DNA of 64,000 bases from the NCBI GenBank assembly GCA_902550555.1, contig CACCZR010000001.1, forward strand, positions 86,191-150,190, in the 5' to 3' direction. A program made the translations under genes and the position numbers. Origin of the DNA: an uncultured SAR116 cluster alpha proteobacterium (GTDB lineage Bacteria; Pseudomonadota; Alphaproteobacteria; Puniceispirillales; Marisalimonadaceae). Within the stretch, counting starts at the first letter, position 1. Each line of letters opens with the position of its first letter. Positions 16,192 to 38,363 of the stretch are shown piece by piece. The notes beneath the pieces were generated by a model. It was not told the DNA's origin. It ran no database searches and saw nothing but the letters and a program-made list of their open reading frames with translations.

Positions 16192-16219
16192 AATAACACC
16201 TTTTAATATTATATTTTAC

Positions 16220-16677: not shown

Positions 16678-16704
16678 AGTATCAGTAATTATAGGATTAT
16701 TAAT

Positions 16705-18457: not shown

Positions 18458-18610
18458 ATGAAACAATTTAATAGAAATGAAAATCTAAAAATTAATGAGA
18501 TCTTTGATCTTAAAATTAACTTAAAAATTTTTAACAAAAATAATAAAGTTTATAAAAAGAAAATTTTACCCTTAAAAATCTTAGCTAATATAGATTTAAC
18601 CAGTAGATAA
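18458..18610 (+). CDS. Candidate 50-aa Lys/Asn-rich small protein
   Basis: AGAGG Shine-Dalgarno 9 nt upstream of the ATG. Sequence MKQFNRNENLKINEIFDLKINLKIFNKNNKVYKKKILPLKILANIDLTSR. The 3' end overlaps the rpoN 3' end by 15 nt. No homology recognised. Confidence 0.3.
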   Translation: MKQFNRNENLKINEIFDLKINLKIFNKNNKVYKKKILPLKILANIDLTSR

Positions 18611-20074
18611 TAATTTGTTTAATTTTGATCGTCTTTTTCTTTCAGCACTAGAAGGAATACTCAACATATCTCTATATTTAGCTACAGTTCTTCTAGCTAC
18701 TTCAATTCCTTGATCAGATAATACATCTGCTATTTTTTCATCACTAAGAGGCTTATTTGAAACTTCCGTAGAAATTAACTTCTTTAATGCTTCCCTTACA
18801 GCTGAAGCTGCATGTTTGTCGCTTTCTTCAGAACTTGGAATAGATGCAGAAAAAAATTCTTTAAGAGATAATAATCCCCAATCAGTTAAAATTAATTTAC
18901 TATTAGTTACTCTTGAGACTGTACTTTCGTGCATACCAATAGCGTCAGCGACATCTTTTAGAATTAGTGGCTTCATGTGACTGAATCCATGTTTAAAAAA
19001 ACTTATCTGTTTTTGTAATATTACAGATGCGACCTTTAATATAGTTTTATTTCTTTGATCGACAGCTTTTTGTAGCCATTTTGCTTCTCCAATTTTATTT
19101 GCTGTAAAATCATTATCATCTTCCCCAAGATTCAAATTAGATATCTCACTTATATAATCTTCATCTAAATCTATTGTTGGGAGAGTTGACTTATTTAAAT
19201 CAATTTTCCAACCTTTATTAGTTTTTGTTACGATTATATCAGGATCAGAAATTCTTAGAGGTTCGTTATTAAAATTCTCTGCTGGCTTGGGGTTTAATGT
19301 TTTAATCATATTAACCATTTGAATAATTTTATTATTTTCTATTTCACACATTTTTATAAGTGTTTTAATTTTCCCTTTTGTAATTAATGATAAGTTATCT
19401 ATTAAAATTTGATATTTATTATCTAAAATTCCCTTTTCTTCTAGTTGTATCTTAAGGCATTCGGATAAATTTTTTGCAAATATCCCAATTGGTTCAAGGC
19501 ATTGTAACTGTTGAATTATTTTTTCTATATAATCTATAGGTTTATTCAATTCCTCAGCAATATCTTCAACTGAATGAATTAACCAACCACTAGGATGTAA
19601 ATAATCAATTAAAGAAATTGCAACAGATTGATCTTTTTTTTCGAAGGAAAGAGTTATTTGATTAGTTAAATGTTCTTTTAATGAAATTTTATTTGCTACA
19701 GTATTTTCGATAACTTCAGATAAAGAAGTATTCTTATTTTCAAAATTATTTTTAATTTTTGTTTTATTTTTTTCAAAAGATTTTTCAGAAATGTGAGTAT
19801 CAAAAGAATTTTTCATTTCTAAATCACTGTTAATCTTCAAAGGGTCTTCATTATGTTTAGTATTTTCAACGACATCATAAGTTTTTTGTTCATTTATTAC
19901 CATTTTTTTTATATTGAGGTCTTCTTTTATAAAAGGGTTTTCTAATTTAGCATTTTCTACATATTCTGCTAATTCAATATTTGTAAGTTGTAAAAGCTTA
20001 ATTGCTTGCTGCAATTGTGGGGTCATAACAATAGACTGATTTTGCTTTATTTTTAACTGTTGATTAATTTTCAT
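18596..20074 (-). CDS. rpoN: RNA polymerase sigma-54 factor
   Basis: Region I LKIKQNQSIVMTPQLQQAIKLLQLTNIEL, HTH and RpoN box ARRTVAKYRDML. Start trimmed to the Met at 20074, preceded by AGGAGG. The track ORF extends to 20128. Confidence 0.9.
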   Translation of the reverse strand: MKINQQLKIKQNQSIVMTPQLQQAIKLLQLTNIELAEYVENAKLENPFIKEDLNIKKMVINEQKTYDVVENTKHNEDPLKINSDLEMKNSFDTHISEKSFEKNKTKIKNNFENKNTSLSEVIENTVANKISLKEHLTNQITLSFEKKDQSVAISLIDYLHPSGWLIHSVEDIAEELNKPIDYIEKIIQQLQCLEPIGIFAKNLSECLKIQLEEKGILDNKYQILIDNLSLITKGKIKTLIKMCEIENNKIIQMVNMIKTLNPKPAENFNNEPLRISDPDIIVTKTNKGWKIDLNKSTLPTIDLDEDYISEISNLNLGEDDNDFTANKIGEAKWLQKAVDQRNKTILKVASVILQKQISFFKHGFSHMKPLILKDVADAIGMHESTVSRVTNSKLILTDWGLLSLKEFFSASIPSSEESDKHAASAVREALKKLISTEVSNKPLSDEKIADVLSDQGIEVARRTVAKYRDMLSIPSSAERKRRSKLNKLLSTG

Positions 20075-20275
20075 AACAAACCTCCTATATATGATTTCAA
20101 TCAAAGAAAAATTCGTTTGAAAAATCAAAGCTTTAATTTGACATGATTTTAAAGACAGAAATTTGACAATAAAAAACTATATCAGTTCTTAAATTTAATG
20201 TATTATCGTGGGTATGTTTAAGATTTGGCTTTTTTATAAATTTACAAAAGTCATTATGTTGACAAGAAAATATTA

Positions 20276-20488
20276 ATGTTTTTTTCAACTTCATGTAAAA
20301 TATGTAAAATCATAAGAATATTCTTATTCTCAGTTTTTTTGCTTATACTCTTAGCTTTAATCCAAAAAGATAAGCTACATTATTTAAAATTCATAACTCC
20401 AGAAAATGCCGCCTATTTTATTTTAGTCGTAGGCATTTTAATAACAATTTTAAAAATTTTTGAATATATAAAAAATAAAAAAAATTAA
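20276..20488 (+). CDS. Hypothetical small membrane protein (two predicted TM helices)
   Basis: 70 aa. CKICK near the N-terminus and two hydrophobic stretches. No family recognised. Confidence 0.3.
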   Translation: MFFSTSCKICKIIRIFLFSVFLLILLALIQKDKLHYLKFITPENAAYFILVVGILITILKIFEYIKNKKN

Positions 20489-20979
20489 TTTCTATCTCTT
20501 ACCAACCGAATATAATTTGGTTTATAACCAGGATATCGACCGAATGTATTACCGTTTAAAAAATTAACTATCCAATTAAATTCAGGTTGCCAAAAATTCT
20601 TATCTTTTGTCCAAAAAGGTTCTGGGGGAGTTTTTGGAAAAATTTTTAAATTAATTTTAACTTTATCGCATTCTAAACATATTAAACTTTCTAACTCATG
20701 TCTTGTTGGTAATCTCCAACTACCCTCCAATTGTTTATTAGCTAATTTTTTAATTTCTGGAACAAATTTAAATTCGAACTTTTTTGCTTCTCCAATACAA
20801 GTATTTCCTTTCCAAACCATTCCTACTGGACAAGTCATCCATTCAATTTTATTTTTTAAGTCAATAATAAAATATCCTCTAGGTATATACTCAGAAGCAA
20901 ATAAAAATTTAGGTATTAAAAATAAAAAAAATATTCCTGTCATCAATTTAAAAAATTTACTAGAAAGTATTCTACACAT
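20485..20979 (-). CDS. Secreted DUF1566 (Lcl C-terminal domain)-like protein
   Basis: 164 aa. Signal-like N-terminus, and a W..C..G..W.G..C...WRLPTRHELESL pattern typical of DUF1566. Confidence 0.6.
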   Translation of the reverse strand: MCRILSSKFFKLMTGIFFLFLIPKFLFASEYIPRGYFIIDLKNKIEWMTCPVGMVWKGNTCIGEAKKFEFKFVPEIKKLANKQLEGSWRLPTRHELESLICLECDKVKINLKIFPKTPPEPFWTKDKNFWQPEFNWIVNFLNGNTFGRYPGYKPNYIRLVRDRN

Positions 20980-21081: not shown

Positions 21082-21846
21082 ATGGATATAGCATCTTTAA
21101 TAGGTTTAGTTGGAACACTAGGAATGATTGCAGGCGCAATGGTTTCATCAGGAGGAATTGGTCCATTCATTGATACCCCTTCGATGTTAATCGTCATTGG
21201 TGGAACTTTCTTTGCAGTCATGTATAGATCTACGCTGCCAGATTTTCTTGCTTCTTTTGGAACTTTAGTAAAAGTTTTTTTACCTGGTGCAAAAAAACAT
21301 GATGAATTAATTACTAGAATTACTGAGTTAGCTGGAATTGCAAGAAAAGATGGAATGATGGCTCTAGAAGGCCAAGAGGTGCCGGATAAATTTTTTGAAA
21401 AAGGACTTCAAATGCTTGTAGATGGAGCTGATGAAACAAAATTAACCGAACAATTAAATAGAGAAGTTAAAGGCATGATAAGACGACATGATAATATGAA
21501 AAGTGTCTTTCAAGCTTGGGTAGATTTAGCCCCTGCTATGGGAATGATCGGAACTCTAATTGGTTTAGTTGCAATGTTAGGAAATATGGCTGATCCAAAA
21601 GCTATCGGACCTGCGATGGCTGTTGCACTTTTAACAACACTTTATGGAGCGATGATTGCTAACTGTATATTTATGCCAATTGTAACAAAATTGGAAAATT
21701 ACTCTGCACATGAAGCTTTATATAGAGAGATGGTTGTTATGGGATTAAAATATATTTCAAGAGGAGAAAGTCCTAGAAACATTACAGACCAGTTGATAGC
21801 AAATTTACCTCCTAAACTTCAAGCAAAAATAGAAGAAGCTGCTTAA
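21082..21846 (+). CDS. motA: Flagellar stator A subunit (MotA/PomA family; by eye closest to Na+-type PomA)
   Basis: 254 aa. The N-terminus MDIASLIGLVGTLGMIAGAMVSSGGIGPFIDTPSMLIVIGGTFF parallels Vibrio PomA as remembered. C-terminal MotA_ExbB signature PAMGMIGTLIGLV...GPAMAVALLTTLYGAMIAN. Confidence 0.85.
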   Translation: MDIASLIGLVGTLGMIAGAMVSSGGIGPFIDTPSMLIVIGGTFFAVMYRSTLPDFLASFGTLVKVFLPGAKKHDELITRITELAGIARKDGMMALEGQEVPDKFFEKGLQMLVDGADETKLTEQLNREVKGMIRRHDNMKSVFQAWVDLAPAMGMIGTLIGLVAMLGNMADPKAIGPAMAVALLTTLYGAMIANCIFMPIVTKLENYSAHEALYREMVVMGLKYISRGESPRNITDQLIANLPPKLQAKIEEAA

Positions 21847-21862: not shown

Positions 21863-23041
21863 ATGGCTGAAGCACAAGAAAATCCTAATGTAGAAGAACA
21901 AGAAGAAGAAGAATGTCCTAAATGCCCACCACCAGGAGCACCTGCTTGGATGGCAACATTTGCTGATATGGCAACTTTATTGATGGCATTTTTTGTTCTA
22001 ATTCTTTCATTTGCTGAATTTAATGTTCCAAAATTTAAACAAATTAGTGGTAGTTTAAAAAATGCCTTTGGTATTCAAAGAGTTGTGCCAGTTGTTGAAC
22101 AACCTAGAGGAACAACTGTACTAGCTCTAAATTTTAGTCCCTCTCCTGATCCTTCTGTTACAAAAAACATGACACAACAATCAACAAATACTGAGCAAAA
22201 AAATTTAGACCTTAAATCTGAAGAAGATAAAAGGGAGAGTTCAAAATCAAGTTCAGAAAGTATTGAAAAAGCAAAAAAGCTAGAAGAGGCTCTTAAATCA
22301 ATTGATCTAGACAAAAGTGTTTCAACAGAAGTTATTGATAATAAGGTAGTCGTCAAAATAAATAATGAAGAGATTAAAAATATTCAAGATGTTGTTTCAA
22401 AAACTATTACAGCTATAGAAGATGCAAGAAATAAATCAGGAAATTACGATACTGATGTATTGATTGGTGGTATTAATAATGAGATCAAAGCAATTGCAAT
22501 GGCTGGACAAAATAATAAAGCTCTAATTGATAAAATAGAAAAAATTAATAGAGAAGAAAAAGAAGAAAAAAGAAAAACTGAAGAAACTAAAATAAAAGCT
22601 AAAAGTGCTGAAGATGAATTCAAAGTAGCTTTAAAACAAGAAATTGGACAAGGTTTAACAGAAGTTAAAAGAGAAAAAGATAAGGTCATTATTACCGTAG
22701 GTTCAGCTGGAGCATTCAGATCTGGGTCTGCTGAGCTAACAGAAAATGCAAAAAAAATCATGGGTAAAATTGCTAAAGTAAGTGAAAAAGGAACTGGGCA
22801 AATTAATGTATCAGGTCATACCGATAATGTTCCATTAATTTTTGGTGGACAATATAGAGATAACTGGGATTTAGCTGCTGCGAGAGCATCTAGTGTGGTT
22901 CAATCAATTTCAAAATCTGGAGATATACCATTAGATCGCCTTATGGCAATAAGTTATGGTGAGTCAAAACCATTAGCTTCAAATAATGATGCGACAGGTA
23001 GATCAAAAAATAGAAGGATTGAAATAGAAATTAAATATTAA
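21863..23041 (+). CDS. motB: Flagellar stator B subunit (MotB/PomB family) with an unusually long linker
   Basis: 392 aa. CPKCPPPGAPAWMATFADMATLLMAFFVLILSFAEFNVPKFKQISGSLKNAFGIQ holds the channel Asp and plug and resembles the PomB N-terminus. C-terminal OmpA-like domain (GHTDNVP...NWDLAAARASSV...NRRIEI). Confidence 0.85.
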   Translation: MAEAQENPNVEEQEEEECPKCPPPGAPAWMATFADMATLLMAFFVLILSFAEFNVPKFKQISGSLKNAFGIQRVVPVVEQPRGTTVLALNFSPSPDPSVTKNMTQQSTNTEQKNLDLKSEEDKRESSKSSSESIEKAKKLEEALKSIDLDKSVSTEVIDNKVVVKINNEEIKNIQDVVSKTITAIEDARNKSGNYDTDVLIGGINNEIKAIAMAGQNNKALIDKIEKINREEKEEKRKTEETKIKAKSAEDEFKVALKQEIGQGLTEVKREKDKVIITVGSAGAFRSGSAELTENAKKIMGKIAKVSEKGTGQINVSGHTDNVPLIFGGQYRDNWDLAAARASSVVQSISKSGDIPLDRLMAISYGESKPLASNNDATGRSKNRRIEIEIKY

Positions 23042-23056
23042 TTTCAATATTGAAAT

Positions 23057-23770
23057 ATGGCAGAACAAAGTTTAACTCCTGAAAATTTAGAAAGTTACTC
23101 TACAGAAGCAATATCCAACTTTTATAAAGCTATCGAAGATTTCGCTGATGTTATTACTGAAATAAAGTCTGAAGATGCCAATATTGCAGTATTTAATAGT
23201 ATATATGTGATGATTGAAGGTAGAAAAAGAAGGCTAGCTGACATTGCTAATGTAGAAGCCCCCAATGATCCACTTAATTTAGAAGTAATGGTTTATAGTA
23301 AAGATAATTTAGAATCAGTAATAGATACAATTAAAGAAGCAGGCTTTCCTGTAAAATCAAAAGAAAAAAATTCGCAATTTCTTATAGTAAAAGTACCACC
23401 ACCTTCTAGAATGCAACTTGAAGAAATAGGTGATGACTTAATTAGAAGAACAAATAGTTTAGTAATGAGACTGACTAAGATCAAAACTAATACAGGCTTA
23501 AGAATTAGAGCAGCTGTTCAAAATGAATTTATTGAAACTAAAATTGCTACTTTAGCAACAAAAAAGATTGACGCTTCGCATTTAAAGATAGAAAATGAAG
23601 GCAAATTTCTAGGCGTCTTAAAACGTAAACAAATTCTTGGTAGTTATTTTAAGTCTACTGAAAAAGATGATGAAACTTTTGTTAAAAAAGTTAATTTATA
23701 TTTAAAATTAAACGAAAATTTAAAACAACTTGATGTTAAAGAAGACGAAAATCAAAACAATCAATCTTAA
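23057..23770 (+). CDS. Hypothetical cytoplasmic protein with ribosome-recycling-factor-like architecture; third gene of the stator operon
   Basis: 237 aa with no TM or signal peptide, 15 nt after motB. Residues ~45-130 align by eye with RRF domain II and the start of helix 2 (see findings). Confidence 0.6.
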   Translation: MAEQSLTPENLESYSTEAISNFYKAIEDFADVITEIKSEDANIAVFNSIYVMIEGRKRRLADIANVEAPNDPLNLEVMVYSKDNLESVIDTIKEAGFPVKSKEKNSQFLIVKVPPPSRMQLEEIGDDLIRRTNSLVMRLTKIKTNTGLRIRAAVQNEFIETKIATLATKKIDASHLKIENEGKFLGVLKRKQILGSYFKSTEKDDETFVKKVNLYLKLNENLKQLDVKEDENQNNQS

Positions 23771-23802: not shown

Positions 23803-24558
23803 TTACAGAGTACTTAAACTATCTTCATCACGCACAGGCGGCTCGAGATAGGAGTAATCAAAATCAATTTTAGGATCTAATTTCCGTGAAATTACTTGGG
23901 CTTGCTCTTCGTTTAAACAAGTTAGAACTAAAAACAACCTATAATCTTTATTATTATAATAATTTCTCAATACATTTATTTGATTTAAGCCATAGTACCA
24001 AGACTTTAAAACCCAGGATATACAAAATAACCATGGAGAAACCAAAAACATTATTACAAGAAAGATAATTGTGAAAAAAAGATTCATCCACAATCTATGA
24101 TATAACATCCATAATGGAGGAGCTACGCTTGCCAAGATTGAAAGCTCAAGATCTAATATAAACCCATTTTTTCTTAAATTTTTAAATACCTCAAATTGTT
24201 TATATGATTTGTCTTTTTCAAAAAGATTTTTAATATCAACATTCGAAAAGTCTTTAATATGATTTTCATCTATTTCTTCACATGTAATACCTAATGAAGA
24301 TTTTGTTGAAATATTAAAACCTGTTCCTTCTCTAAAAATTGTAATAATTTTATCTTCTTCATCTTCATCAAGGTTTTTTTTAAGATCTTCATAAGGTAAA
24401 TTAAAATATTCACCATTAAGTCCTATTATAATGTCATTTTCTTTAATTCTAAGATTATATGCATTAGAAAAAACTCTGACATTTGTAATTTTTAAAAATT
24501 TTCTACTTAATTTATCCTGGTCTTCGTTAATAGAATTTGATGATTCATTATTTTCCAT
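23803..24558 (-). CDS. Hypothetical membrane protein: PDZ-like N-domain plus DUF2628-like TM region
   Basis: 251 aa. N-terminal ...NLRIKENDIIIGLNGEYF...IITIFREG is PDZ-like. C-terminal APPLWMLYHRLWMNLFFTIIFLVIMF is DUF2628-like. Last gene of the fliO-flhB string. Confidence 0.5.
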   Translation of the reverse strand: MENNESSNSINEDQDKLSRKFLKITNVRVFSNAYNLRIKENDIIIGLNGEYFNLPYEDLKKNLDEDEEDKIITIFREGTGFNISTKSSLGITCEEIDENHIKDFSNVDIKNLFEKDKSYKQFEVFKNLRKNGFILDLELSILASVAPPLWMLYHRLWMNLFFTIIFLVIMFLVSPWLFCISWVLKSWYYGLNQINVLRNYYNNKDYRLFLVLTCLNEEQAQVISRKLDPKIDFDYSYLEPPVRDEDSLSTL

Positions 24559-24578: not shown

Positions 24579-25292
24579 TTAAGGGTATTTAATCATAGCT
24601 GCCTTGTCTTTCATTTTGCTTACAAGACTATTATTCTTTTTAATTAAAGAATTGATCTGTTGAGAATGCATTGATTGATTTGCAATAATTTTGTTATATA
24701 TAGGGTTTTTACTCATTGATTCCATTGATTTTTTTATAGCTTTAGAACTCTGTGAAGCAAAATTAGTTAAAGTTTTCTTTAAGTCATTATTATTTTTAAC
24801 AGAATTTTTAGAAAATGTATCTAATTCAGTGACTAAAGAATTAGAAATTGTTCTAAGTTCTGCTGCTGTCAACTTATTTGATTCTGTAATTTTCTTTTCA
24901 ATTTTATTCATAGTAGTAATGACGTTTTTATTTACAGCCAAAAATTCATCTTGTTTTTTTATAGCTTTATTTAAACTTTCAAGTGATTTATTTACACTAT
25001 CTACATTTTCTGCAAAAACTACCAATGCCTCTCTACTTGTTTCCGTCATTGTATTTAATTTATTAGAACCTTGCATAAACAAAAATGCTGATACAATTAC
25101 AACAAAAATCCCTGAAACTATTGAAGAAACGAAAACGACTGTTGTGTATTTATGAATTTGTTTCACTTTATCCTCCAAAATTTTATGTTGCTTCCTTACA
25201 GTATTATATTCTGATGTCACATCTGTAGCAGCATCGGCTGCATCTAGAGCTAACTTAATACTTTCTTGTACGGCATCAACTTTATCGTTCAT
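24579..25292 (-). CDS. Hypothetical bitopic membrane protein with long periplasmic coiled-coil region
   Basis: 237 aa. A single TM (TTVVFVSSIVSGIFVVIVSAFLFM) follows ~50 cytoplasmic residues, then a ~165-aa helical Asn/Lys/Ser-rich region. ATGA overlap with the upstream gene. Confidence 0.5.
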   Translation of the reverse strand: MNDKVDAVQESIKLALDAADAATDVTSEYNTVRKQHKILEDKVKQIHKYTTVVFVSSIVSGIFVVIVSAFLFMQGSNKLNTMTETSREALVVFAENVDSVNKSLESLNKAIKKQDEFLAVNKNVITTMNKIEKKITESNKLTAAELRTISNSLVTELDTFSKNSVKNNNDLKKTLTNFASQSSKAIKKSMESMSKNPIYNKIIANQSMHSQQINSLIKKNNSLVSKMKDKAAMIKYP

Positions 25293-25685: not shown

Positions 25686-26840
25686 CTAATCCTCTACTTT
25701 TTTGTTACCATACTCATCAAATTGTAAATCACTTGGTATTTCTATTTCAGGTTTTTCTAAAAATTCACCTTTTTCAATTTTAAATATATAGGCAAGTATA
25801 GCTGCAACGCTTGCATAAAGATCTTCAGAAATTTCTTTACCTATTTTTCCAGTAAAGTATAGAGCTCTAGCCAATAATGGACTACTAAAAATATTTATAT
25901 TTTTTTCGTTAGCTAAATGCATAATTTTTTCTGCCATTAAGCCTCTTCCCATTGCCAAAATTATTGGAGCTCCTTCTTCTCCTACTTCATATTTTAATGC
26001 TACAGCAAAATGAGTTGGATTTGTGATCACAACTGATGCATCTTTTACATCTTCTAAAGCAGAACTCTGTTCACTAGCACGCTGAGAAATTTCATTTTGT
26101 AATCTTCTAATTTTTTGTTTTACTTCAGGTGAACCATCTGTATCTTTCATCTCATCTTTGATTTCTTTTATAGACATTTTTAATTTTTCATTATGAGAAT
26201 GTTTTTGCCAAATAAAATCAATCATCGCTATAACAGCTAAAGCTATTAATAAATAAATAGTCAATTTTGGAAATAATATAATATAACCTTTTAAAGCTTG
26301 ATAAAGACTTCTATCAGATAAATGAATTATATTAATTAAATCAAAATATATAATAATACCAGAAATTCCACCTAGAAGTAATACCTTTAATATTGACTTT
26401 GTTAGTTCAATTAAACTTTGCATAGAAAACATTCTCTTTAATCCAGTGAGAGGATTAATTTTATTACCTTTGAAATTTATAGCCTTAGGTGAAAAATGAA
26501 TTCCACCTCCAACACAAAATTGAGTAACAATTGAAGAAATCAATAATGGAAACCCAATTAACAAAGTTAAAATAACGATTATTTTAATCAATTTTAATAT
26601 TCCCAAATAAGGTTTTTGATAATCTAATTCTTCTAACGAAAATATAAAAAAACTTTTCCACATTGACATGAAATTAGGAAATAAAGAAGAAAGAAAAACT
26701 AATGTCAATAAACCAAAAAAAACTGATGTGAAAACAAACATCTCTTTAGAAGTTAGAAATTGACCGTCCTCAATTGATTTATCAATTTTTCGTTGGGTAG
26801 GTTCTTCCGTTTTTTCTTGTGAATCTTGTTCTTCAGCCAT
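25686..26840 (-). CDS. flhB: Flagellar export gate protein FlhB
   Basis: 384 aa. N-terminus EKTEEPTQRKIDKSIEDGQ and the NPTH autocleavage site (VVITNPTHFAVALKY). Confidence 0.9.
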   Translation of the reverse strand: MAEEQDSQEKTEEPTQRKIDKSIEDGQFLTSKEMFVFTSVFFGLLTLVFLSSLFPNFMSMWKSFFIFSLEELDYQKPYLGILKLIKIIVILTLLIGFPLLISSIVTQFCVGGGIHFSPKAINFKGNKINPLTGLKRMFSMQSLIELTKSILKVLLLGGISGIIIYFDLINIIHLSDRSLYQALKGYIILFPKLTIYLLIALAVIAMIDFIWQKHSHNEKLKMSIKEIKDEMKDTDGSPEVKQKIRRLQNEISQRASEQSSALEDVKDASVVITNPTHFAVALKYEVGEEGAPIILAMGRGLMAEKIMHLANEKNINIFSSPLLARALYFTGKIGKEISEDLYASVAAILAYIFKIEKGEFLEKPEIEIPSDLQFDEYGNKKVED

Positions 26841-27643
26841 TATTTATACTCATTTGAATGTAAAACATTATCTATTAAGTTTATACTTATACCAACTAGG
26901 TCTGAAAAAGCATTGGCTATTGTACCTAAAGCTAAGTAAAGAAAAATAAAAACACCAAGTAAAGTAATTGGGAAAATAAATGAAAATAAATTTAAAGTTG
27001 GAGCAGATCTTGTTATTATACCACCAGCTAAATTTATGAGTAACATTCCTCCAACAACTGGTAACATAATCAAACTGCCTAAGTATAACATCCTTCCAAA
27101 TGCAAATATGCCTGCATTGCTTACTTCTCTAAAATTTAAAGACTCCCCAATTGGTAGATAATTATAACTTTCAATAATCATTTTTATCAAAAATAAATGT
27201 CCATCGAGAGATAAAAAAATACTTATGAGAAATAAAGATAAAACTGTACTAATTACTAAAGTTTGACCTCCAGACTGCGGATCAACCATATTTGCCATAG
27301 ATAATCCAGCTGTGGATGCTATTTTTTCTCCACTTACAGAAGCCGCAGAAAACATAATATTTAAAATTAATCCAACTGATAAACCTAAACCAATCTCTGC
27401 TAAAATGATTATAAATATACTTAAAATACTCATTTCCATTACGTTAGGTAATTTTATATTTTGAAAAATAAAAAATGTTATACACATTGATAAAATAATC
27501 CGCACTTGAAGAGGAATGAAACTCGTTGAAAAAAAAGGCATACTAATAAGTAATGAACTAATTCTTAAGGAAGAGAAAAAAAACATTAAAACTAACTGGT
27601 ATAAATTTGTTAAGTCAAGTCCTGGAAAAGCTAACGGATTCAT
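26840..27643 (-). CDS. fliR: Flagellar export gate protein FliR
   Basis: 267 aa polytopic membrane protein in the conserved fliPQR-flhB order. 1-nt overlap with flhB. Confidence 0.85.
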   Translation of the reverse strand: MNPLAFPGLDLTNLYQLVLMFFFSSLRISSLLISMPFFSTSFIPLQVRIILSMCITFFIFQNIKLPNVMEMSILSIFIIILAEIGLGLSVGLILNIMFSAASVSGEKIASTAGLSMANMVDPQSGGQTLVISTVLSLFLISIFLSLDGHLFLIKMIIESYNYLPIGESLNFREVSNAGIFAFGRMLYLGSLIMLPVVGGMLLINLAGGIITRSAPTLNLFSFIFPITLLGVFIFLYLALGTIANAFSDLVGISINLIDNVLHSNEYK

Positions 27644-27654
27644 GATTGTAATTC

Positions 27655-27924
27655 TTAAATCCCTACACTTGAAATTTGATCAAATATAAAAGAAAAATAA
27701 TCTGATAATCCAACCATAAAAAAATTTCCTAAAAATGCAAATCCAATTAGAACAACAATTACCTTTGGAACAAAACTTAATGTCATTTCATTAATTGATG
27801 TTGCCGCCTGAAATATACCAATTAGTAAACCTATAGCTAGAGCTAAGCCTAATAAAGGACCACAAATCATAATAACTTTATATAATGCTAAACTGAGCAT
27901 AGAAATATTTTCATCAAAAGTCAT
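27655..27924 (-). CDS. fliQ: Flagellar export gate protein FliQ
   Basis: 89 aa, two TM helices. LLGLALAIGLLIGIFQAATSINEMTLSFVPK is the FliQ signature. Confidence 0.9.
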   Translation of the reverse strand: MTFDENISMLSLALYKVIMICGPLLGLALAIGLLIGIFQAATSINEMTLSFVPKVIVVLIGFAFLGNFFMVGLSDYFSFIFDQISSVGI

Positions 27925-27925
27925 C

Positions 27926-28717
27926 TCAACCTCCTGCTGAAAAAGTACTTACTAAGGAACCAACAGTCATTGCCCATCCATCAACTAAAACAAAAAGTAA
28001 TAATTTAAATGGTAGTGAAATAAGCATTGGTGAAAGCATCATCATACCTAATGACATCAATATGGAAGAGATAACCATATCAATAACTAAAAAAGGTAGA
28101 AATATTAAAAAACCTATTTGAAATGCAGTTTTCAATTCACTTGTCATAAAAGCTGGCAATACAACTCGAAAAGGTATTTCTTCATAATTTTCAAACTTTT
28201 TATCAATACCTGCTAAGTCAGAAAACATCAAAAGATCTGTTTTTCTTGTATTTTTGACCATGAAATTTTTTATACCTTTACTTGCTTTATCTACAGCTTC
28301 CTCTGCTGAAACTTCATTATTCATATACGGTATTGCTGCTTCATTGTAAATTTTTGTTAATGTTGGACTCATAATAAAAAAAGTTAAAAACAGAGAAATT
28401 GCAATAATTACTTGATTAGGAGGAGTTTGCTGTGTTCCTAGAGCTTGTCTTAAAATTGACATTACTATTATTATTCTAGTAAAACTTGTCATGCCTAAAA
28501 TTAATGAGGGTAAAATTGTTAATGCTCCCATTAGAATTAGAATTTGAAGTGGCAATGAATATTCTGTTTTACCTCCATTAGTATTTACATTTAAAGCAGG
28601 TAAACCATTTAAAAGTTCATTTGCAAGCGCAGGTTTACTAATGCATAAAATTGTAAACGCTAATATTATTAAAAATTTTAAAGGAGAATATATTAAATTT
28701 ATCATGTACTTTTTCAT
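27926..28717 (-). CDS. fliP: Flagellar export gate protein FliP
   Basis: 263 aa. Signal peptide, then LILMGALTILPSLILGMTSFTRIIIVMSILRQALGTQQTPPNQV, the FliP signature. Confidence 0.9.
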   Translation of the reverse strand: MKKYMINLIYSPLKFLIILAFTILCISKPALANELLNGLPALNVNTNGGKTEYSLPLQILILMGALTILPSLILGMTSFTRIIIVMSILRQALGTQQTPPNQVIIAISLFLTFFIMSPTLTKIYNEAAIPYMNNEVSAEEAVDKASKGIKNFMVKNTRKTDLLMFSDLAGIDKKFENYEEIPFRVVLPAFMTSELKTAFQIGFLIFLPFLVIDMVISSILMSLGMMMLSPMLISLPFKLLLFVLVDGWAMTVGSLVSTFSAGG

Positions 28718-28719
28718 AA

Positions 28720-29154
28720 TTAACTCTTTTTATGTAATGCAAGAAGATCAGAAATATTAACCTGCTCCAAAGGTTTTTTTGTTTCAACTTTTGGAGAAGC
28801 ATTTGTATTTTCCTTTGCAATTAAACTATTTGAAATATCTTTATTTTCGTTAAGGTTATTTTTATTATTTATAAATTTTTGATCTTTTTCTGCAGGTGAT
28901 TTTAAAATTTGCACTAGGTTTGAATGGCCTGATTTATGACCTACAAAAAAAAACTTTTCATTTTCTATTGAAAAAATCATAGCAGAATATCCACCTCTTA
29001 TTGGTGAATATTCAATTATATTAATTTTTTTATTGTTAATTATTTTTTTTAAAGAAACACTTTTTCTTCTTATAAAAAAAGCAACTAATACAAAAATACC
29101 CAAAAAACTTAAAACTGTTATTATTGTATATGGATTTAAAATACCTTCATTCAT
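28720..29154 (-). CDS. fliO: Flagellar protein FliO
   Basis: 144 aa with a single N-terminal TM. Assigned by position directly upstream of fliP and by size and topology. Confidence 0.6.
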   Translation of the reverse strand: MNEGILNPYTIITVLSFLGIFVLVAFFIRRKSVSLKKIINNKKINIIEYSPIRGGYSAMIFSIENEKFFFVGHKSGHSNLVQILKSPAEKDQKFINNKNNLNENKDISNSLIAKENTNASPKVETKKPLEQVNISDLLALHKKS

Positions 29155-29178
29155 AACTTACCTCTCATTTTAAGGTAA

Positions 29179-29193
29179 GCAAGAATAGTGCCA
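29179..29193 (-). promoter_or_regulatory. Sigma54 promoter upstream of fliO
   Basis: The minus strand reads TGGCAC-TATTC-TTGCT, a consensus -24/-12. The -12 GC lies 25 nt upstream of the fliO ATG, with GAGAGG between them. Confidence 0.85.
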
Positions 29194-29250
29194 ATGATGA
29201 AGTTATATAACGCTTTGAAAAAATTGAATAAAATTAGTCAAAAATTTGAC

Positions 29251-29568
29251 TTATAACTTTTTAACAGTATCTTCTGGATTAGAAACTTCTGTAAATCTTA
29301 CACCAAATCTTTCTCCAACCATTACTACTTCACCTCTTGCAATTTGAACACCATTAGCAAGGATATCAAGAGGATCTCCTGCAAGTCTTTCCAACTCAAC
29401 CACAGAACCTTCATTTAGTCTTAAAAGATCACGTATTTTTAATTGGGATGATCCAACTTCTACAGTAAGTTTAACTTCAATATTTTCTAAAACTTTTAAA
29501 TTATCAATACTAACTTCAGACTTATTATCTTCAGTCTCAACGTTATTCTCTTGATCTAATTCCGCCAT
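29251..29568 (-). CDS. fliN: Flagellar C-ring protein FliN
   Basis: 105 aa SpoA domain (LTVEVGSSQLKIRDLLRLNEGSVVELERLAGDPLDILANG...ARGEVVMVGERFGVRF). Confidence 0.9.
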   Translation of the reverse strand: MAELDQENNVETEDNKSEVSIDNLKVLENIEVKLTVEVGSSQLKIRDLLRLNEGSVVELERLAGDPLDILANGVQIARGEVVMVGERFGVRFTEVSNPEDTVKKL

Positions 29569-29578
29569 ATTAACTCCT

Positions 29579-30550
29579 TTAAGAAACTCTATTTTTAAGG
29601 CTTATTGCAGCCTGACCATTTGATTCACCAATTTCAGCTTTAAATAATATTTTTTTATCAACTAAAAAATCTACTCCATCAATAGGACCAATCTGCAGTA
29701 AATCACCTTTTTTAAAATTAACCATTTGTGACACTTTTACCTTGGGTTCACTTAAAATAGCAGATACAGGCAATGGTACATTTAGTACTGAATTTTGTAA
29801 CCTTTCTCTCCAAGTTGTGTCATCCTCAATCACATCTGACTGAACTCTAGATCTCAAAAGGGAAGCAATTGGTTTAAGTGTTTGCAGTGGATATATTATA
29901 TCAAATGAAGCTGAATCTACATTTGGTAATTGTATTACAAAAGAACATATTATCACTGAATCTGATGCCTCAACTAGAGTTGCAAATTGAGGATTTATTT
30001 CTCTACCAACATTTTTTATTGAAATTGGCATTAAATCTTTCCAAGCATTCTCTAATGATCTTCCAATACCGTCGCTGACTATCTCAATTATTCTTTCTTC
30101 AGTTGCAGTAAATTCAGCTTTTTTTGAGGGAAAGCTTGCTAATTTTCCACCATAATAACAATTGGTTAATATGCTAATAAATGATGGATCCATAACTAAC
30201 AACATCGAACCTTTTAATTCCTCTATACGAGAAGTAGACAAGCTCATAAAACTTTCTAAGCCAGCACTATATTCATCATAAGTTTTAACTTCTGGGGGAA
30301 AAGGATTAATTTTGGGTTGTAATCTCAACATTGGTAAAAATATCCCTCTTACCATCCTAGCAAATCTCTCGTTAATTAGTCTTAGGGCATAATAGTCTCC
30401 CATTAATTCAAGATTATCAGATCCAAAAGTAAAAGATGTTACCTCTAAGTCGTTATTAAAACCATCTCCAGAATTAATTTCACCAGATTTCAAGCCATCC
30501 ATTAAGGCTGATACTTCTTCTGACGATAATTTCCTTGACGTGTTTGACAT
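29579..30550 (-). CDS. fliM: Flagellar C-ring switch protein FliM
   Basis: 323 aa. N-terminal CheY-P-binding-type motif LSSEEVSALMDG and a C-terminal SpoA-like domain. Confidence 0.9.
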   Translation of the reverse strand: MSNTSRKLSSEEVSALMDGLKSGEINSGDGFNNDLEVTSFTFGSDNLELMGDYYALRLINERFARMVRGIFLPMLRLQPKINPFPPEVKTYDEYSAGLESFMSLSTSRIEELKGSMLLVMDPSFISILTNCYYGGKLASFPSKKAEFTATEERIIEIVSDGIGRSLENAWKDLMPISIKNVGREINPQFATLVEASDSVIICSFVIQLPNVDSASFDIIYPLQTLKPIASLLRSRVQSDVIEDDTTWRERLQNSVLNVPLPVSAILSEPKVKVSQMVNFKKGDLLQIGPIDGVDFLVDKKILFKAEIGESNGQAAISLKNRVS

Positions 30551-30560
30551 TTAAAAACCC

Positions 30561-31157
30561 TTATTGAACTACAAAACTTGTAAAATAAACACCCTCAATA
30601 CCAGGGAATTCTTTAAGAGATTCTAGTTTAGCATTCATTTCTTTAAGTAACTTTTCAGAAAGAGCATTTTTACCTTCACTTCCAGAAATACTTTCTTCAG
30701 AAAAATCACTAATAACTGATAAAATGACAGATCTTAAAGCTAATTGATGCTGATCAACCATTTCAATAACTTTTTCGTCATATTGAGTTGAAACACCAAC
30801 ACTAATTTGTAGAAACTTTTTACTATTTTTTAAATTTGTAGTGAAATCACCAGGAAATTCAAAATAAGTTGTTTCATAAGCGTCGACATCTGGAACTGAT
30901 TTAACATTTTTTGTTATTATTCCCTCTTCATTATTTTCTTCAGTGTTTTCATCTTTATTCTGTTTATTTTTTACCTTTGGTTCTCCTTCAATAATTTGAT
31001 TCACTTCTTGTGAAGGATCTTGTTCTGGTTCACCACCAAAAATGAAATATCCAATTCCAAGACCTAGAACAATTAAAAACATCCCACCAATCACAAAAAG
31101 AATAATTTTTAAAATCCCACCTTTTTTTTGTTGTTCTTCTTCTTTTACTTCAGCCAT
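30561..31157 (-). CDS. fliL: Flagellar basal-body-associated protein FliL
   Basis: 198 aa. A single TM, then YFEFPGDFTTNL...LQISVGV...LRSVILSVIS...GIEGVYFTSFVVQ, the FliL signature. Confidence 0.85.
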   Translation of the reverse strand: MAEVKEEEQQKKGGILKIILFVIGGMFLIVLGLGIGYFIFGGEPEQDPSQEVNQIIEGEPKVKNKQNKDENTEENNEEGIITKNVKSVPDVDAYETTYFEFPGDFTTNLKNSKKFLQISVGVSTQYDEKVIEMVDQHQLALRSVILSVISDFSEESISGSEGKNALSEKLLKEMNAKLESLKEFPGIEGVYFTSFVVQ

Positions 31158-31170
31158 TTTTGTCTCACTT

Positions 31171-32400
31171 CTAAGCGTTAATATTAATTAAGTAATTTGA
31201 ATTGTCATCTTTATTATTTTCTTCATTCTCTAGAATAGATATCTCATCTTTATTAAAATTATTATCTTTATTATTTTCTGAAGAATTTTTATTTTCTCTA
31301 TTTGAACTCATTAACGAATTTTCAAAATTAATTTTTTCTAATAGAAAACCGTGATCTGATAGTGTCTTTGCTAATAGTCCTTCGTTAGATTGTAATGCAA
31401 TCATACTAGCTGCATTTTCAACTTTCATTACGATATTTGCACTTTTATCTTTTATTTTTAAATTAATTTTTAAATTACCTAGTTCTTTTGGTTTTAAAGC
31501 TAATTCGATCTGCTTTTCATCTTCCTTTAATCCTTTTTCTATTCTTAAAATTAATTTTTCTGTCCAACCAAGTTTTGATATATCTAATTCTTCAATCATT
31601 TGATCTAAAACAAAATTAATATTTCTATCACTGTTAAATTGGTGTTGACTAAAATTGTTTCTTAAACTTAAGTTGTCTATTTTGTTTATTTGGTCACTAT
31701 GATGAGAAAAATTATTGCTCTCACTATTACCTTTAGTTTGTTTATACATAATTTCATTATCGTTAAAAATTATTTTATTTTCAAAATTCTTTGAATTTAT
31801 ATCTTCCTTTAAGCGATCAATTTTAGAAAAAATATCATTTAAAATACCTTTATTATACTCATTATTTTTAACATTATTTTTTTTAATTATATTATTATAA
31901 GAATTAGGTTTTAAATTTGATTTGTCTGACACATTTAAAAGGCTTTTCTCATTTTCACTAATTGAATTAATGTTTATGTTTATATCTTTGGTAATATCAC
32001 TATTTGATAACTTAGATACAATATTTTTTTTATTAAAATTTATTTTTAACAGCTTATCTGATTTTACATTAAGATTTAAAATATTTGGAATTTTTTTTGA
32101 ATTAAAATCAAAAACTTTATCATTTTTAAAAATTGGATGGTTCGTTTCATTTTCAGGAAATTTAGAAAAAAAATCCTTAAACATAATCTCTAATTTACCT
32201 ATATTTTTGGATGATTTTTTTGAACTTAATACTTTTTCAATTGAAGGATTCACAATAAATTCATTTATATTTTTTCCGTTAACTTTTTTTTCATCAACCA
32301 ATACAGGCAATGAAAACAAAGCACCTAAAACGTCATCAGTTTTACTTTTATCATTATTTTTAACGCTCAAATCAAATTTATGTGTATTAATTTTATCCAT
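31171..32400 (-). CDS. fliK: Flagellar hook-length control protein FliK
   Basis: 409 aa. Low-complexity N-terminal ruler region and a C-terminal Flg_hook-type domain (IELALKPKELGNLKINLKIKDKSANIVMKVENAASMIALQSN). Confidence 0.7.
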   Translation of the reverse strand: MDKINTHKFDLSVKNNDKSKTDDVLGALFSLPVLVDEKKVNGKNINEFIVNPSIEKVLSSKKSSKNIGKLEIMFKDFFSKFPENETNHPIFKNDKVFDFNSKKIPNILNLNVKSDKLLKINFNKKNIVSKLSNSDITKDINININSISENEKSLLNVSDKSNLKPNSYNNIIKKNNVKNNEYNKGILNDIFSKIDRLKEDINSKNFENKIIFNDNEIMYKQTKGNSESNNFSHHSDQINKIDNLSLRNNFSQHQFNSDRNINFVLDQMIEELDISKLGWTEKLILRIEKGLKEDEKQIELALKPKELGNLKINLKIKDKSANIVMKVENAASMIALQSNEGLLAKTLSDHGFLLEKINFENSLMSSNRENKNSSENNKDNNFNKDEISILENEENNKDDNSNYLININA

Positions 32401-32423
32401 AAAAGACCTTTAAGAGAATAAAT

Positions 32424-32438
32424 GCAATTTAAGTGCCA
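32424..32438 (-). promoter_or_regulatory. Sigma54 promoter upstream of fliK
   Basis: The minus strand reads TGGCAC-TTAAA-TTGCA, a perfect consensus, inside the 41-nt fliJ-fliK gap. The -12 GC lies 24 nt upstream of the ATG. Confidence 0.85.
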
Positions 32439-32441
32439 CAA

Positions 32442-32864
32442 TTAATTTTTTGTTAAATTTCTATTTGTAATTTCTAATTTTAAATCTTGAAACTCACTAA
32501 ATTCCATTTTCTTTTTATGGATTTTTTTTTCTACCTTATCTTTTTGAATAAATGTTTTTGCAATCGCTAAATCAGTTTTATTTTTTTGCTCTAATAAAAA
32601 TTCTTTTTTATTTTCTGCAATTTGTTTTTGCTTACTCATTATGTTTATGACTTTGCTCTTATTTTTATAAATTGCTCCTATCAAATTTTTATTAGTTTTT
32701 TTATTATTCTCTTGAATAATATTATTAATTTTAGACAATAAAATATCAGTTTTTTTTAATTCTTCATTTATTAAATTTACATTATTAATTTGATTATAAA
32801 GATCTCTTTTTTTTAATTTTTCAAGAAGTTTATATAACCTTATTTCTTTTTTAATCTTATTCAT
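32442..32864 (-). CDS. fliJ: Flagellar export chaperone/stalk protein FliJ
   Basis: 140 aa Lys-rich coiled coil. Assigned by the conserved position after fliI (8-nt overlap) and by size. Confidence 0.6.
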   Translation of the reverse strand: MNKIKKEIRLYKLLEKLKKRDLYNQINNVNLINEELKKTDILLSKINNIIQENNKKTNKNLIGAIYKNKSKVINIMSKQKQIAENKKEFLLEQKNKTDLAIAKTFIQKDKVEKKIHKKKMEFSEFQDLKLEITNRNLTKN

Positions 32865-34179
32865 TATATAACTTCAACAATTTTGATATGCATTCACTAT
32901 AATTAATTTTTTCATTTTCTTTTTGAGAGATGAAATCAATAATTTTAGGCCACATTGTGATTGCCTCATCAAGTAATATATCTTTACCTGGAACATATCC
33001 ACCCATCATAAGAAGATCTTTATTTTCAACATAAGAGGACACATGAGCTCTAAATTTTGTTGCTATATCTAAATGATCTTCTTTAATAATTTCATTCATG
33101 ACCCTACTAACTGAATTAGTTATATCAACTGCTGGATAAATTCCCATTTGTGCATTACTTCTACTTAACAGTATATGACCATCCAATATAGCCCTTGCAG
33201 TGTCAACAACAGGGTCATTGTTATCATCAGCATCTGCTAAAACAGTATAAAATGCAGTTATACTTCCATCAGAAACATCAGAGTTTCCAGTTCTTTCAAT
33301 TAAATTCGGTATCATTGAAATGACCGATGGAGGATAACCTTTTGAAGTAGGTTGTTCTCCCAGAGAAAGACCAATTTCCCTTTTTGAATGAGCTATTCTA
33401 GTCAAGCTATCCATAATTAATAAAACATTTTTGTTTTTACTTCTAAAATATTCAGCTATAGCAGTTGCTCTATTGGCTCCTCTTACCCTCAAAAGTGGTG
33501 ATTGATCTGCTGGAACAGCAACAACAGTAATTTTGTTTTTATTTTCATTACTAAACAGACTTTGTACCATTACTCCAACTTCCCTAGCTCTCTCTCCAAT
33601 CAAACCAAGAACAACTACATCTGCATTAGTAAATTGACTCATCATTTTTATTAAAATAGATTTACCTACTCCCGAACCTGCAACAATCCCTACTCTTTGA
33701 CCTTGTCCAATAGTTAAAAGTGAATTAATTATTTTTATTCCTACATCCAAGGGTTTTGTTACCGGCTTTCTTTTTAGAGGATTCATAGACTTTCCCATTA
33801 AAGGCCACTCCTCTTTCATTTTATCTATAGGTTTATCGTCTAATGGATTACCAAATGCATCTGTAATCCGTCCTAAAATCCTTTCATCAATATTAATATT
33901 TTTTCCATTATCTATTAACTGTACTTTACAACCTATAATTAAATTTGGATTTTGCCCTAATACAGCAAGCATATTGTATTTTTCATCAAAACTAATAACT
34001 TCGGACATGATTTTGTTTTTATTACAATCATATATTAAGCATAAACTCCCAATTGGAGCTGGAAAAGGATCTGTATAAACGATATTCCCATCAAATTTTT
34101 TCACCTCTCCAATATGAATGATATTCTTTTCAACAGATATGTTTTTAATTTTTTCTGAAATCTGGGAAGTAAAATTCAT
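32857..34179 (-). CDS. fliI: Flagellum-specific ATPase FliI
   Basis: 440 aa. Walker A AGSGVGKS, Walker B LLIMDSLTR, F1-beta-like. Confidence 0.92.
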   Translation of the reverse strand: MNFTSQISEKIKNISVEKNIIHIGEVKKFDGNIVYTDPFPAPIGSLCLIYDCNKNKIMSEVISFDEKYNMLAVLGQNPNLIIGCKVQLIDNGKNINIDERILGRITDAFGNPLDDKPIDKMKEEWPLMGKSMNPLKRKPVTKPLDVGIKIINSLLTIGQGQRVGIVAGSGVGKSILIKMMSQFTNADVVVLGLIGERAREVGVMVQSLFSNENKNKITVVAVPADQSPLLRVRGANRATAIAEYFRSKNKNVLLIMDSLTRIAHSKREIGLSLGEQPTSKGYPPSVISMIPNLIERTGNSDVSDGSITAFYTVLADADDNNDPVVDTARAILDGHILLSRSNAQMGIYPAVDITNSVSRVMNEIIKEDHLDIATKFRAHVSSYVENKDLLMMGGYVPGKDILLDEAITMWPKIIDFISQKENEKINYSECISKLLKLYNE

Positions 34180-34182
34180 AAT

Positions 34183-35226
34183 TTACTCTATTACTTTTTT
34201 ATACTTTATTGATTGAATCACTCCACCAATGTCAATTGTAAAATCACCTCTACCTAAAGAAGAATCTAAATCCAATTTAAAAGTAATTTCTGATTTATTA
34301 CTTTCTATAAATTTGTTTAATAAATCAAAATCCTCATTATTGAGATAAATTTTAATATCGTTATTAATACTTTTTATTTCATTAATACTATTTTTAATTT
34401 TTTTTAAAAACTTGTCAGGAAATTTTTCTATTTGGTAACCAATTACACTTTCGGCTAATTCAATTACTTTTGCCTTAACTACATTTTCAATTTCTTCATT
34501 ACTAATTTCTCTAATATTTTTAAATAGAGTATTAATTAAACTAATTTCAGAAATAACTTCATTAGCATAATCTTTTGAATCTTCTGTATTATTTTTAATT
34601 TCTTCACTTTGAGTTTCGATATTTTCTTCTAAAGATTTTGTTACAGCTTCACGAACTGAGTCTAATGCTTCAAGTGTTTTTTCTTCATATTCAATTTTAT
34701 TTGTTTCAGCAGAATTAGTATCAAGAATTTCTTCATCTAGTTTCTTTACATTTTTATTAATATCTTCCTCTAATACTCCCTCTGATTTTTCTTGTTTATC
34801 ATTAACATTTTCTTTTGAAACTTCATCTGATTTTATGGTTTCATCGATAGCTCCATCAACATGGTCTGCTTCTTTTTCATTATTATTATTTTTATCAATA
34901 TCGTTAAAAGAATGAATATTTTCAGGTCCATCATTTTGATTAATGTCTTTAACAGTTTCTTGACTTACACCTACATTTTCTTCACTGGAGTTATCAGTTT
35001 CATTTTGGTTTTCTTCTGATGAAATTCTTTCAGATTCTTTTGCTAGATCAAATAATGTTTTTTTTACAAAGTTTTTTTTATCTTTTTTATATAATTCTTC
35101 TTGATTAAATGTTGAATTTTTAAACGATTTAATAACAGAATTAATCTCATCAGTTCCTAAAGGAGAAAGTTTTAACTCCTCATTCTCATTTTCACTCTGG
35201 TTTATATTGACCATAACATTACTCAT
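34183..35226 (-). CDS. fliH: Flagellar assembly protein FliH with long acidic N-terminal extension
   Basis: 347 aa. The C-terminal ~110 aa are FliH-like (...AESVIGYQIE..., ...LGRGDFTIDIGGVIQS). Located between fliG and fliI. Confidence 0.7.
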   Translation of the reverse strand: MSNVMVNINQSENENEELKLSPLGTDEINSVIKSFKNSTFNQEELYKKDKKNFVKKTLFDLAKESERISSEENQNETDNSSEENVGVSQETVKDINQNDGPENIHSFNDIDKNNNNEKEADHVDGAIDETIKSDEVSKENVNDKQEKSEGVLEEDINKNVKKLDEEILDTNSAETNKIEYEEKTLEALDSVREAVTKSLEENIETQSEEIKNNTEDSKDYANEVISEISLINTLFKNIREISNEEIENVVKAKVIELAESVIGYQIEKFPDKFLKKIKNSINEIKSINNDIKIYLNNEDFDLLNKFIESNKSEITFKLDLDSSLGRGDFTIDIGGVIQSIKYKKVIE

Positions 35227-35232
35227 CTAAAT

Positions 35233-36273: not shown

Positions 36274-36297
36274 TTTATATCCTATCTGTATTATGTT

Positions 36298-38013: not shown

Positions 38014-38033
38014 AACTTAATCCTTTATCTATA

Positions 38034-38342: not shown

Positions 38343-38363
38343 TTTTAATCCTCTTTAATTAAT

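Follow-up and report, generated by a model that had tools for sequence, protein, structure and literature searches.

A ribosome recycling factor-like protein encoded in a flagellar stator operon of marine SAR116 Alphaproteobacteria and its possible role at the motor

To our knowledge, the only role attributed so far to the ribosome recycling factor (RRF) fold is that of a tRNA mimic that splits ribosomes, which makes it a fold with a single function. Its usual genetic context is pyrH-frr-uppS. The flagellar motor, for its part, is controlled by soluble brakes and clutches, the PilZ proteins YcgR, MotI and FlgZ, and EpsE, which bind MotA or FliG and alter torque, some of them under second-messenger control. 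Short BLUF photoreceptors of the PixD, BlsA and YcgF type act through protein-protein outputs, and no BLUF protein is known to us in which the partner domain is RRF-like. Here we analysed a stretch of 64,000 nucleotides (hereafter the window; positions 86,191 to 150,190 of contig CACCZR010000001.1) from an uncultured alphaproteobacterium of the SAR116 cluster, which is among the most abundant bacterial groups of the ocean. The third and last gene of a flagellar stator operon in this window encodes an RRF-like protein, which we call RRFL (23057..23770, forward strand, stop codon included). The RRF fold and the database label 'ribosome recycling factor' were already known; what is new is the evidence for a separate paralog family and for its association with the flagellar motor. 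A literature search returned no description of an RRF-like protein tied to flagella, stators or BLUF domains, or presented as a paralog.

Fold of RRFL and its distance from canonical RRF

The RRFL open reading frame (ORF) starts with an ATG and encodes 237 residues. It follows the stop codon of a motB/pomB-like gene after a spacer of 15 nt (23042..23056), an arrangement that an earlier note on this DNA had described and that the ORF list bears out. The same note had seen no transmembrane segment. The highest mean Kyte-Doolittle hydropathy over 19 residues was 0.55, the N-terminus is acidic and the isoelectric point is 5.5, so that RRFL, having no hydrophobic segment, is probably cytoplasmic. 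Comparison with seven close relatives gave ratios of non-synonymous to synonymous substitution rates (dN/dS) of 0.07-0.16, indicating purifying selection. The gene is real.

An alignment made by eye had suggested an RRF fold, with similarity over domain II. HMMER and hhalign reproduced this alignment, and the Pfam RRF profile PF01765 matched residues 33-185 along profile positions 5-155 of 164 (E=2.5e-8, 34.4 bits). This score clears the gathering threshold of 29.7 bits only marginally, and relatives scored between 17 and 44 bits. An AlphaFold2 model built from an alignment of 23 homologues (pLDDT 81.8, pTM 0.70) placed a helix at residues 13-34, a beta/alpha/beta domain at 40-112, two helices at 118-155 and 161-197, and an additional fourth helix at 205-236. 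When the model was compared with the PDB by Foldseek, the best 26 matches were all RRFs of bacterial, chloroplast or mitochondrial origin (E from 8.4e-11 to 1.6e-4, about 185 aligned columns, 12-19% identity), and every significant match was an RRF. The profile match and the predicted structure thus agree and confirm that RRFL has the RRF fold, an L-shaped, two-domain architecture in which a beta/alpha/beta domain follows helix 1 of a three-helix bundle.

Helix 1 (residues 13-34; 23093..23158) is preceded by a (D/E)SYS motif found throughout the family, in which Y14 is invariant and S15 nearly so in the 23-member alignment. The hinge and domain II (residues 37-116; 23165..23404) form the stretch closest to canonical RRF, as aligned by HMMER and hhalign with the RRFs of Thermus thermophilus, Mycobacterium tuberculosis and Escherichia coli, and contain a conserved GRKRRLxD motif. 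Helices 2 and 3 (residues 118-197; 23408..23647) carry the family signature PSRMQLEE, KxKTNTxLRxxAA, NEFI and RKxILG. The residues conserved family-wide are (D/E)SYS, R58 and D62 in domain II, and K143, E157, I159 and A164 near the turn between helices 2 and 3. Going by RRF topology, the SYS motif and this turn would come together at the bundle tip. The extra C-terminal helix with its variable polar tail (residues 205-236; 23669..23764) is not present in canonical RRF, and it is at this same end that a relative carries a BLUF domain. RRFL itself gave no match to a PilZ domain at E<=1 and none to BLUF (PF04940) in the Pfam scan.

The distance from canonical RRF is large. The NCBIfam equivalog model TIGR00496, whose cut-off of 149.1 bits we took as defining a functional frr product, scored RRFL at 22.6 bits, 126 bits short, and covered residues 24-115 only; it matched 11 of 23 diverse family members, the best with E=3.1e-7. 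Against any solved RRF, RRFL reached at most 16 bits. For calibration we used an E. coli RRF sequence that scores 378.5 bits against PDB entry 1ek8. This query found every solved RRF over its full length with at least 65 bits, including those of Mycoplasma (85 bits) and human mitochondria (66 bits), whereas in a tblastn search of the window it did not detect RRFL at E<=10.

The differences extend to the residues that mark RRF. HMMER and hhalign, whose alignments of helix 1 and domain II are convincing, show the hinge motif RTGRA replaced by KSEDA; LTEERR is replaced by SRMQLE (SRMQLEE when extended), in line with the loss of RTGRA and EERR reported in the earlier note. When RRFL is aligned by MAFFT with the RRFs of E. 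coli and T. thermophilus, R31 is replaced by D or E, R109 by Q and R110 by L, while R129 is variable. These equivalences are less certain in the helices than in domain II: when the family was compared with E. coli RRF by hhalign, domain II aligned well but helix 2 received an implausible 11-residue gap, and MAFFT was used for the helices instead. Helix 1 has a net charge of -7, compared with +2 in E. coli RRF, and at 237 residues RRFL is, as already noticed, longer than RRF (about 185 residues), by some 50 residues. The names given to relatives by NCBI point the same way: the one in the SAR116-type isolate LSUCC0744, on a contig of 2.64 Mb, is called 'hypothetical protein', and one from a metagenome-assembled genome (MAG) of Puniceispirillum is called 'BLUF domain-containing protein'. 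Taken together, these comparisons strongly, though indirectly, support the earlier proposal that RRFL is a diverged paralog and not the housekeeping frr.

RRFL belongs to a family of its own. A set of 5.8 billion proteins contained 567 homologues at E<=1e-3, nearly all from marine metagenomes and from single-amplified genomes or MAGs of Alphaproteobacteria, and the family is confined to some, mostly marine, members of this class. An exhaustive search of 1.84 billion cluster representatives retrieved 71 clusters, not one of them canonical RRF, and a metagenome scan with a hand-made degenerate DNA pattern added 80 loci of a remote 'EYIEP' clade. A neighbour-joining tree separates the family, as a single group, from the RRFs of E. 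coli and T. thermophilus and divides it into three main clades, each of which includes members linked to flagellar genes. Some candidates were set aside. Two large proteins (P0172 and P0184) with six weak repeats matching residues 20-89 were judged spurious, their Pfam matches being only of the low-complexity type. A 248-residue metagenomic protein (P0011) proved to be a chimera in which assembly had artificially joined two incomplete RRFL copies in tandem; to PF27519, the Pfam label precomputed for this protein, the RRFL of the window gave no match in the local Pfam scan.

Gene neighbourhoods of the RRFL family

The stator operon begins with a motA/pomA-like gene for subunit A (21082..21846, forward strand, 254 residues; Pfam MotA_ExbB, 98.2 bits), for which PomA is the highest-scoring NCBIfam model, its 276.9 bits falling short of the 341-bit cut-off. 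After a gap of 16 nt it continues with the motB/pomB-like gene for subunit B (21863..23041, forward strand, 392 residues; MotB_plug 65 bits, OmpA 62.7 bits), which scores 261.1 bits against the MotB-family model NF006508 (cut-off 259). We found no terminator-like site between 20400 and 24700, and a promoter and terminator scan gave no signal above the shuffled background; motA, motB and RRFL are probably co-transcribed. The MotB/PomB protein is unusually long, with a low-complexity linker rich in K, E and S at approximately residues 100-250. Given the composition of this linker, two antisense ORFs within motB (22075-22356 and 22444-22761) are probably artefacts.

To place this operon in context we examined 73 loci, with one genome per species in GTDB, and identified neighbours by tblastn and Pfam. 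The largest group (group 1) comprised 49 AT-rich loci, mostly labelled SAR116, with RRFL identities of 48-95% and MotA identities of 88-100%. The order motA-motB-RRFL was present in 49/49 of these species-level genomes, always with motB and RRFL on the same strand and 15-68 nt apart (median 36). Wherever the contig was long enough, the trio stood within the order M23 peptidase, rpoN, Lcl_C, motA, motB, RRFL. The flhB operon, adjacent in the window, is no longer so in the more distant half of the group. Ca. Levibacter sp. Uisw_134_01, a member of this group with a complete genome (NZ_CP159808.1), has der, bamB and a TPR gene after the trio and the remaining flagellar cluster elsewhere, which indicates that motA-motB-RRFL persists as a unit. 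The der (EngA) gene there (L053:10765-12123, reverse strand), which is convergent with RRFL, encodes a 50S-assembly GTPase; its position is probably a coincidence and is recorded here on account of the RRF fold.

Two further groups keep RRFL beside motor genes in other arrangements. Group 2 has five loci (37-39% identity; 33% over a partial match in L079), in which fliP, fliR, flhB, a 237-residue gene, a 251-residue gene and RRFL follow one another on a single strand, convergent with motB and motA. RRFL has thus switched strand to end the flhB operon and still abuts motB. Group 3 (36-44% identity) consists of 11 GTDB loci (L057-L067), locus L072 and the P0126 contigs. Here, every locus with enough upstream sequence has the order fliG, a small secreted protein with four cysteines, RRFL, a convergent gene for a cNMP-binding protein, and a rhomboid gene. 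The part from fliG to the cNMP-binding protein, a stand-alone protein of 143 residues, spans L067:8585-11073 and was also present in L005, L006, L058-L060, L062-L066 and L072. FliG of this group is 61% identical to that of the window, the genes upstream of fliG are not flagellar, and no further homologue of the flagellar genes of the window was found within 10 kb in the three loci scanned. RRFL is therefore co-located with stator or rotor genes in three conserved arrangements: in motA-motB-RRFL, with fliG one gene away (group 3), and in the flhB operon (group 2). The closest relatives are tied to both torque-generating partners, the stator and FliG, and the tie outlasts rearrangement. The expectation that synteny with the stator genes would be conserved consequently stands for the lineage, in 49/49 genomes, but not for the distant subfamilies, which are not beside stator genes and several of which have no flagellar neighbour.

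Members of a family of small secreted proteins of about 70-113 residues, with a signal peptide and the pattern CRL...C...C...C, are encoded directly upstream of RRFL in several distant subfamilies (L067:9658-9933; L005:380-652; L082:2419-2760; L086:1296-1631; L084:3511-3783). A motif scan found no copy in the window.

Flagellar links recur among remote members. The RRFL in L086 adjoins the gene of a 914-residue flagellin with a protease insert, and another remote RRFL is part of a cluster that contains FlgT_N- and LPP20-domain genes, flhA, fliA, flgF/G, rpoN and a gene in the flhF position that has no Pfam match. The flagellin (L086:2369-5113, reverse strand), convergent with RRFL, contains metallopeptidase (Reprolysin/M10) and hemolysin-type calcium-binding regions and is apparently enzymatic. 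A third case is a fusion in which an RRF-like region is followed by a C-terminal BLUF domain (P0165, L084:936-2165; PF04940, 83.7 bits). This gene lies about 3 kb from flgF/G, fliA, a ParA/MinD-type gene in the flhG position, a P-loop gene in the flhF position and flhA. Proteins of the fusion family have 409-414 residues, and the fusion is kept in 14 protein clusters (P0165 and P0311-P0323; also L160), of which the only one with a taxon name belongs to Candidatus Puniceispirillum. Such retention implies that the scaffold serves as a signalling output. Together with the cNMP-binding neighbour fixed in group 3, it suggests that the RRFL scaffold is an output element of sensory pathways. Overall, six distinct arrangements were flagellar-linked and five were not. 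Of these five, two are the P0143-like and P0187-like clades and three are single loci or groups; the contigs of P0136, P0143, P0127 and P0128 themselves are too short to show any context.

Other features of the window

The window is AT-rich (G+C 27-33%) and contains a large flagellar cluster with housekeeping genes around it. Divergent from motA, rpoN (sigma-54) and the gene of a secreted Lcl_C-domain protein were assigned from Pfam and synteny (18596..20979, reverse strand), and in groups 1 and 2 the stator operon invariably has this pair upstream of it. The Lcl_C-domain protein has 164 residues (20485-20979, reverse strand), and its gene keeps this position in every group 1 and group 2 locus that reaches that far. 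Further upstream of rpoN, at 15459-18414, are three bactofilin genes, a 120-residue gene and an M23 peptidase gene, a set that resembles the bactofilin-LmdC cell-shape module.

Convergent with RRFL is the gene of a conserved membrane protein of 251 residues (23803..24558, reverse strand) with only weak matches to PDZ and DUF2628. It lies downstream of RRFL in the subset of group 1 with 59-95% identity, and directly upstream of it on the same strand in group 2. Between this gene and flhB, a conserved single-pass coiled-coil protein of 237 residues is encoded (24579..25292, reverse strand), for which only synteny and weak matches, for example to a ZorA tail (E=5e-4), are available. As both genes are co-directional with RRFL in group 2, they may belong to the same module.

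The flagellar export and basal-body operon or operons (25686..39548, reverse strand), convergent with the stator operon, comprise flhB, fliR, fliQ, fliP, fliN, fliM, fliL, a fliK-like gene, fliI and fliG. These names were taken from the Pfam-annotated syntenic locus L001 and mapped onto the window by tblastn. fliG occupies 35233-36273, and an unannotated 571-residue ORF stands in the fliF position (36298-38013). Beyond them lies the gene of a sigma-54 activator (39727-40857, forward strand) with AAA+ and HTH_8 domains, in which no receiver domain was detected. Since this gene and rpoN (18596-20128, reverse strand) flank the flagellar cluster, sigma-54-dependent flagellar expression is suggested.

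Possible roles of RRFL and comparison with known systems

We favour the reading that RRFL assists or regulates the rotor-stator interface of the flagellum from the cytoplasm, and give it a probability of slightly under one half (about 0.47). RRFL would be a neofunctionalised RRF paralog that keeps the L-shaped two-domain scaffold, is made together with a PomAB-type stator and acts on the motor in the cytoplasm. The most conserved patch, which is predicted to lie at the tip of the bundle (the N-terminal SYS, K143 and the NEFI turn), could dock on the rotor-stator interface, its presumed partner being MotA/PomA, through the cytoplasmic domain, or FliG, through the C-terminal domain. The hinged domain II might serve as another arm, either stabilising the engagement of the stator or blocking it. 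Sensory control of the scaffold in relatives could come from the fused BLUF domain and possibly from the neighbouring stand-alone cNMP-binding protein. The effect could be that of a brake, a clutch or an assembly aid, and the earlier suggestion of a brake, clutch, assembly factor or regulator is best taken as a hypothesis.

Several observations weigh against a motor role. Group 4, with seven loci at 25-30% identity, shows RRFL between the genes of a secreted 161-residue protein and a DnaJ-domain protein, and has no flagellar gene within 10 kb. Three remote members also have no flagellar neighbour, and within the 3-10 kb visible no flagellar gene was seen for the P0150-like, P0147-like, P0143-like and P0187-like clades. 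The abundant P0143-like proteins, found in SAR116 of higher GC including isolate LSUCC0744, are encoded between ald (alanine dehydrogenase) and hsp20, with suf genes near and no flagellar genes, and the P0187-like proteins also have a non-flagellar context. As the residues conserved family-wide are common to these subfamilies too, the shared partner may not be flagellar at all. In addition, groups 1-3 are all related Alphaproteobacteria, so that part of the synteny is inherited and not independent. It is mainly the existence of the non-flagellar subfamilies that calls for caution.

Alternatively, the flagellar neighbourhood could be inherited synteny without functional meaning, and RRFL a general adaptor or regulator with an unrelated role, for instance in the response to stress or light. 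The P0143-, P0187-, P0150- and P0147-like clades and group 4 are consistent with this, as are the BLUF fusion and the hsp20 or dnaJ-domain neighbours. The remote RRFL in L082, about 3 kb from the same bactofilin/M23 module as stands upstream of the stator operon of the window, hints at an old regional synteny. However, six flagellar arrangements against five non-flagellar ones speak against it, flagellar genes making up, as a rough estimate, only a few percent of a genome. The tight same-strand spacing to motB in 49/49 genomes, the retention of the trio once split from the rest of the flagellar cluster, and the pairing of fliG with RRFL away from the other flagellar genes present in the window also argue against it, and we consider this explanation fairly unlikely. 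Another possibility is that RRFL has kept a target in translation, either the ribosome or a translational GTPase, and is a specialised translation factor that tunes or localises the translation of, for example, flagellar or stress proteins. Its RRF fold is complete, with domain II and the hinge region best conserved relative to canonical RRF. In the MAFFT alignment, moreover, the functionally critical R132 of E. coli RRF falls on the near-invariant lysine K143, which leaves room for residual ribosome binding and is a further point against the motor. Non-flagellar family loci lie near hsp20, a DnaJ-domain gene or der. Against such a factor stand the loss of several conserved basic residues (R31 of the M. 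tuberculosis and E. coli RRFs to D/E, R109 to Q, R110 to L, R129 variable), the acidic helix 1 (-7 compared with +2 in E. coli), and scores of 16 bits against solved RRFs where mitochondrial RRFs reach at least 65 bits with the E. coli query. Conserved translation-gene neighbours are also absent, the recurrent ones being motB, fliG, genes of the flhB operon and flagellin. We regard this possibility as unlikely.

A further explanation, that RRFL is the sole, highly diverged housekeeping RRF of the organism, draws on the label 'ribosome recycling factor' that IMG and one NCBI record give to family members, and on the failure of tblastn to find a canonical frr, either in the 64-kb window (E. coli RRF query) or in 202 RRFL-related loci, which extend up to 10 kb to each side and total 1.8 Mb (queries from both E. 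coli and T. thermophilus). Yet RRFL remains 126 bits below the TIGR00496 cut-off and no family member comes close to it, and its relatives are called 'hypothetical protein' in NCBI records. RRFL is only 50% identical between genomes whose MotA is 93% identical. The frr gene is essential and well conserved across bacteria, those with reduced genomes included. Several distinct RRFL subfamilies, one of them BLUF-fused, occur across genomes labelled SAR116 or Puniceispirillaceae. Nor is the context pyrH-frr-uppS, as no UMP-kinase or prenyltransferase domain was found among the 30 window ORFs scanned. That RRFL is the translation factor is very improbable, and that it is the only RRF of the cell is hardly credible.

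Returning to the rotor-stator reading, a bolder version would hold that marine Alphaproteobacteria recruited the RRF fold as a new class of flagellar-motor effector that binds the PomA/FliG torque interface, with BLUF and cNMP versions giving SAR116 control of swimming by light or second messengers. We consider this version doubtful. If the RRFL family does work outside translation, it would clearly exemplify the reuse of a translation-factor scaffold. RRFL is a candidate for a new soluble partner of a sodium-type stator or of FliG, and the version with a fused BLUF domain points to a route from light to motility that can be tested. For annotation, 'ribosome recycling factor' is probably wrong as a functional name for these proteins.

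Among known systems, short BLUF photoreceptors resemble some relatives of RRFL, since P0165 and 13 further clusters carry a C-terminal BLUF domain on the RRF-like scaffold; unlike them, the RRFL of the window has no BLUF domain. With YcgR, MotI, FlgZ and EpsE the likeness lies only in the proposed mode of action, RRFL relatives being linked to BLUF and cNMP-binding modules. RRFL has neither a PilZ nor a glycosyltransferase domain, and its fold is unrelated to theirs. The mitochondrial and chloroplast RRFs share with RRFL a diverged RRF fold with extensions, but they are true recycling factors and are found full-length by E. coli RRF at 65-162 bits. The closest architecture is that of RRF itself (PF01765, TIGR00496; PDB 1ek8, 1eh1 and 6vud), in which helix 1 is likewise followed by an inserted beta/alpha/beta domain II and then by helices 2 and 3. 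RRFL differs from it in having 12-19% identity, a failed equivalog match, replaced RTGRA and LTEERR motifs, and the loss of R110 and R129. To these are added an acidic helix 1, 50 extra residues, a fourth helix, and a place in a stator operon instead of beside pyrH and uppS.

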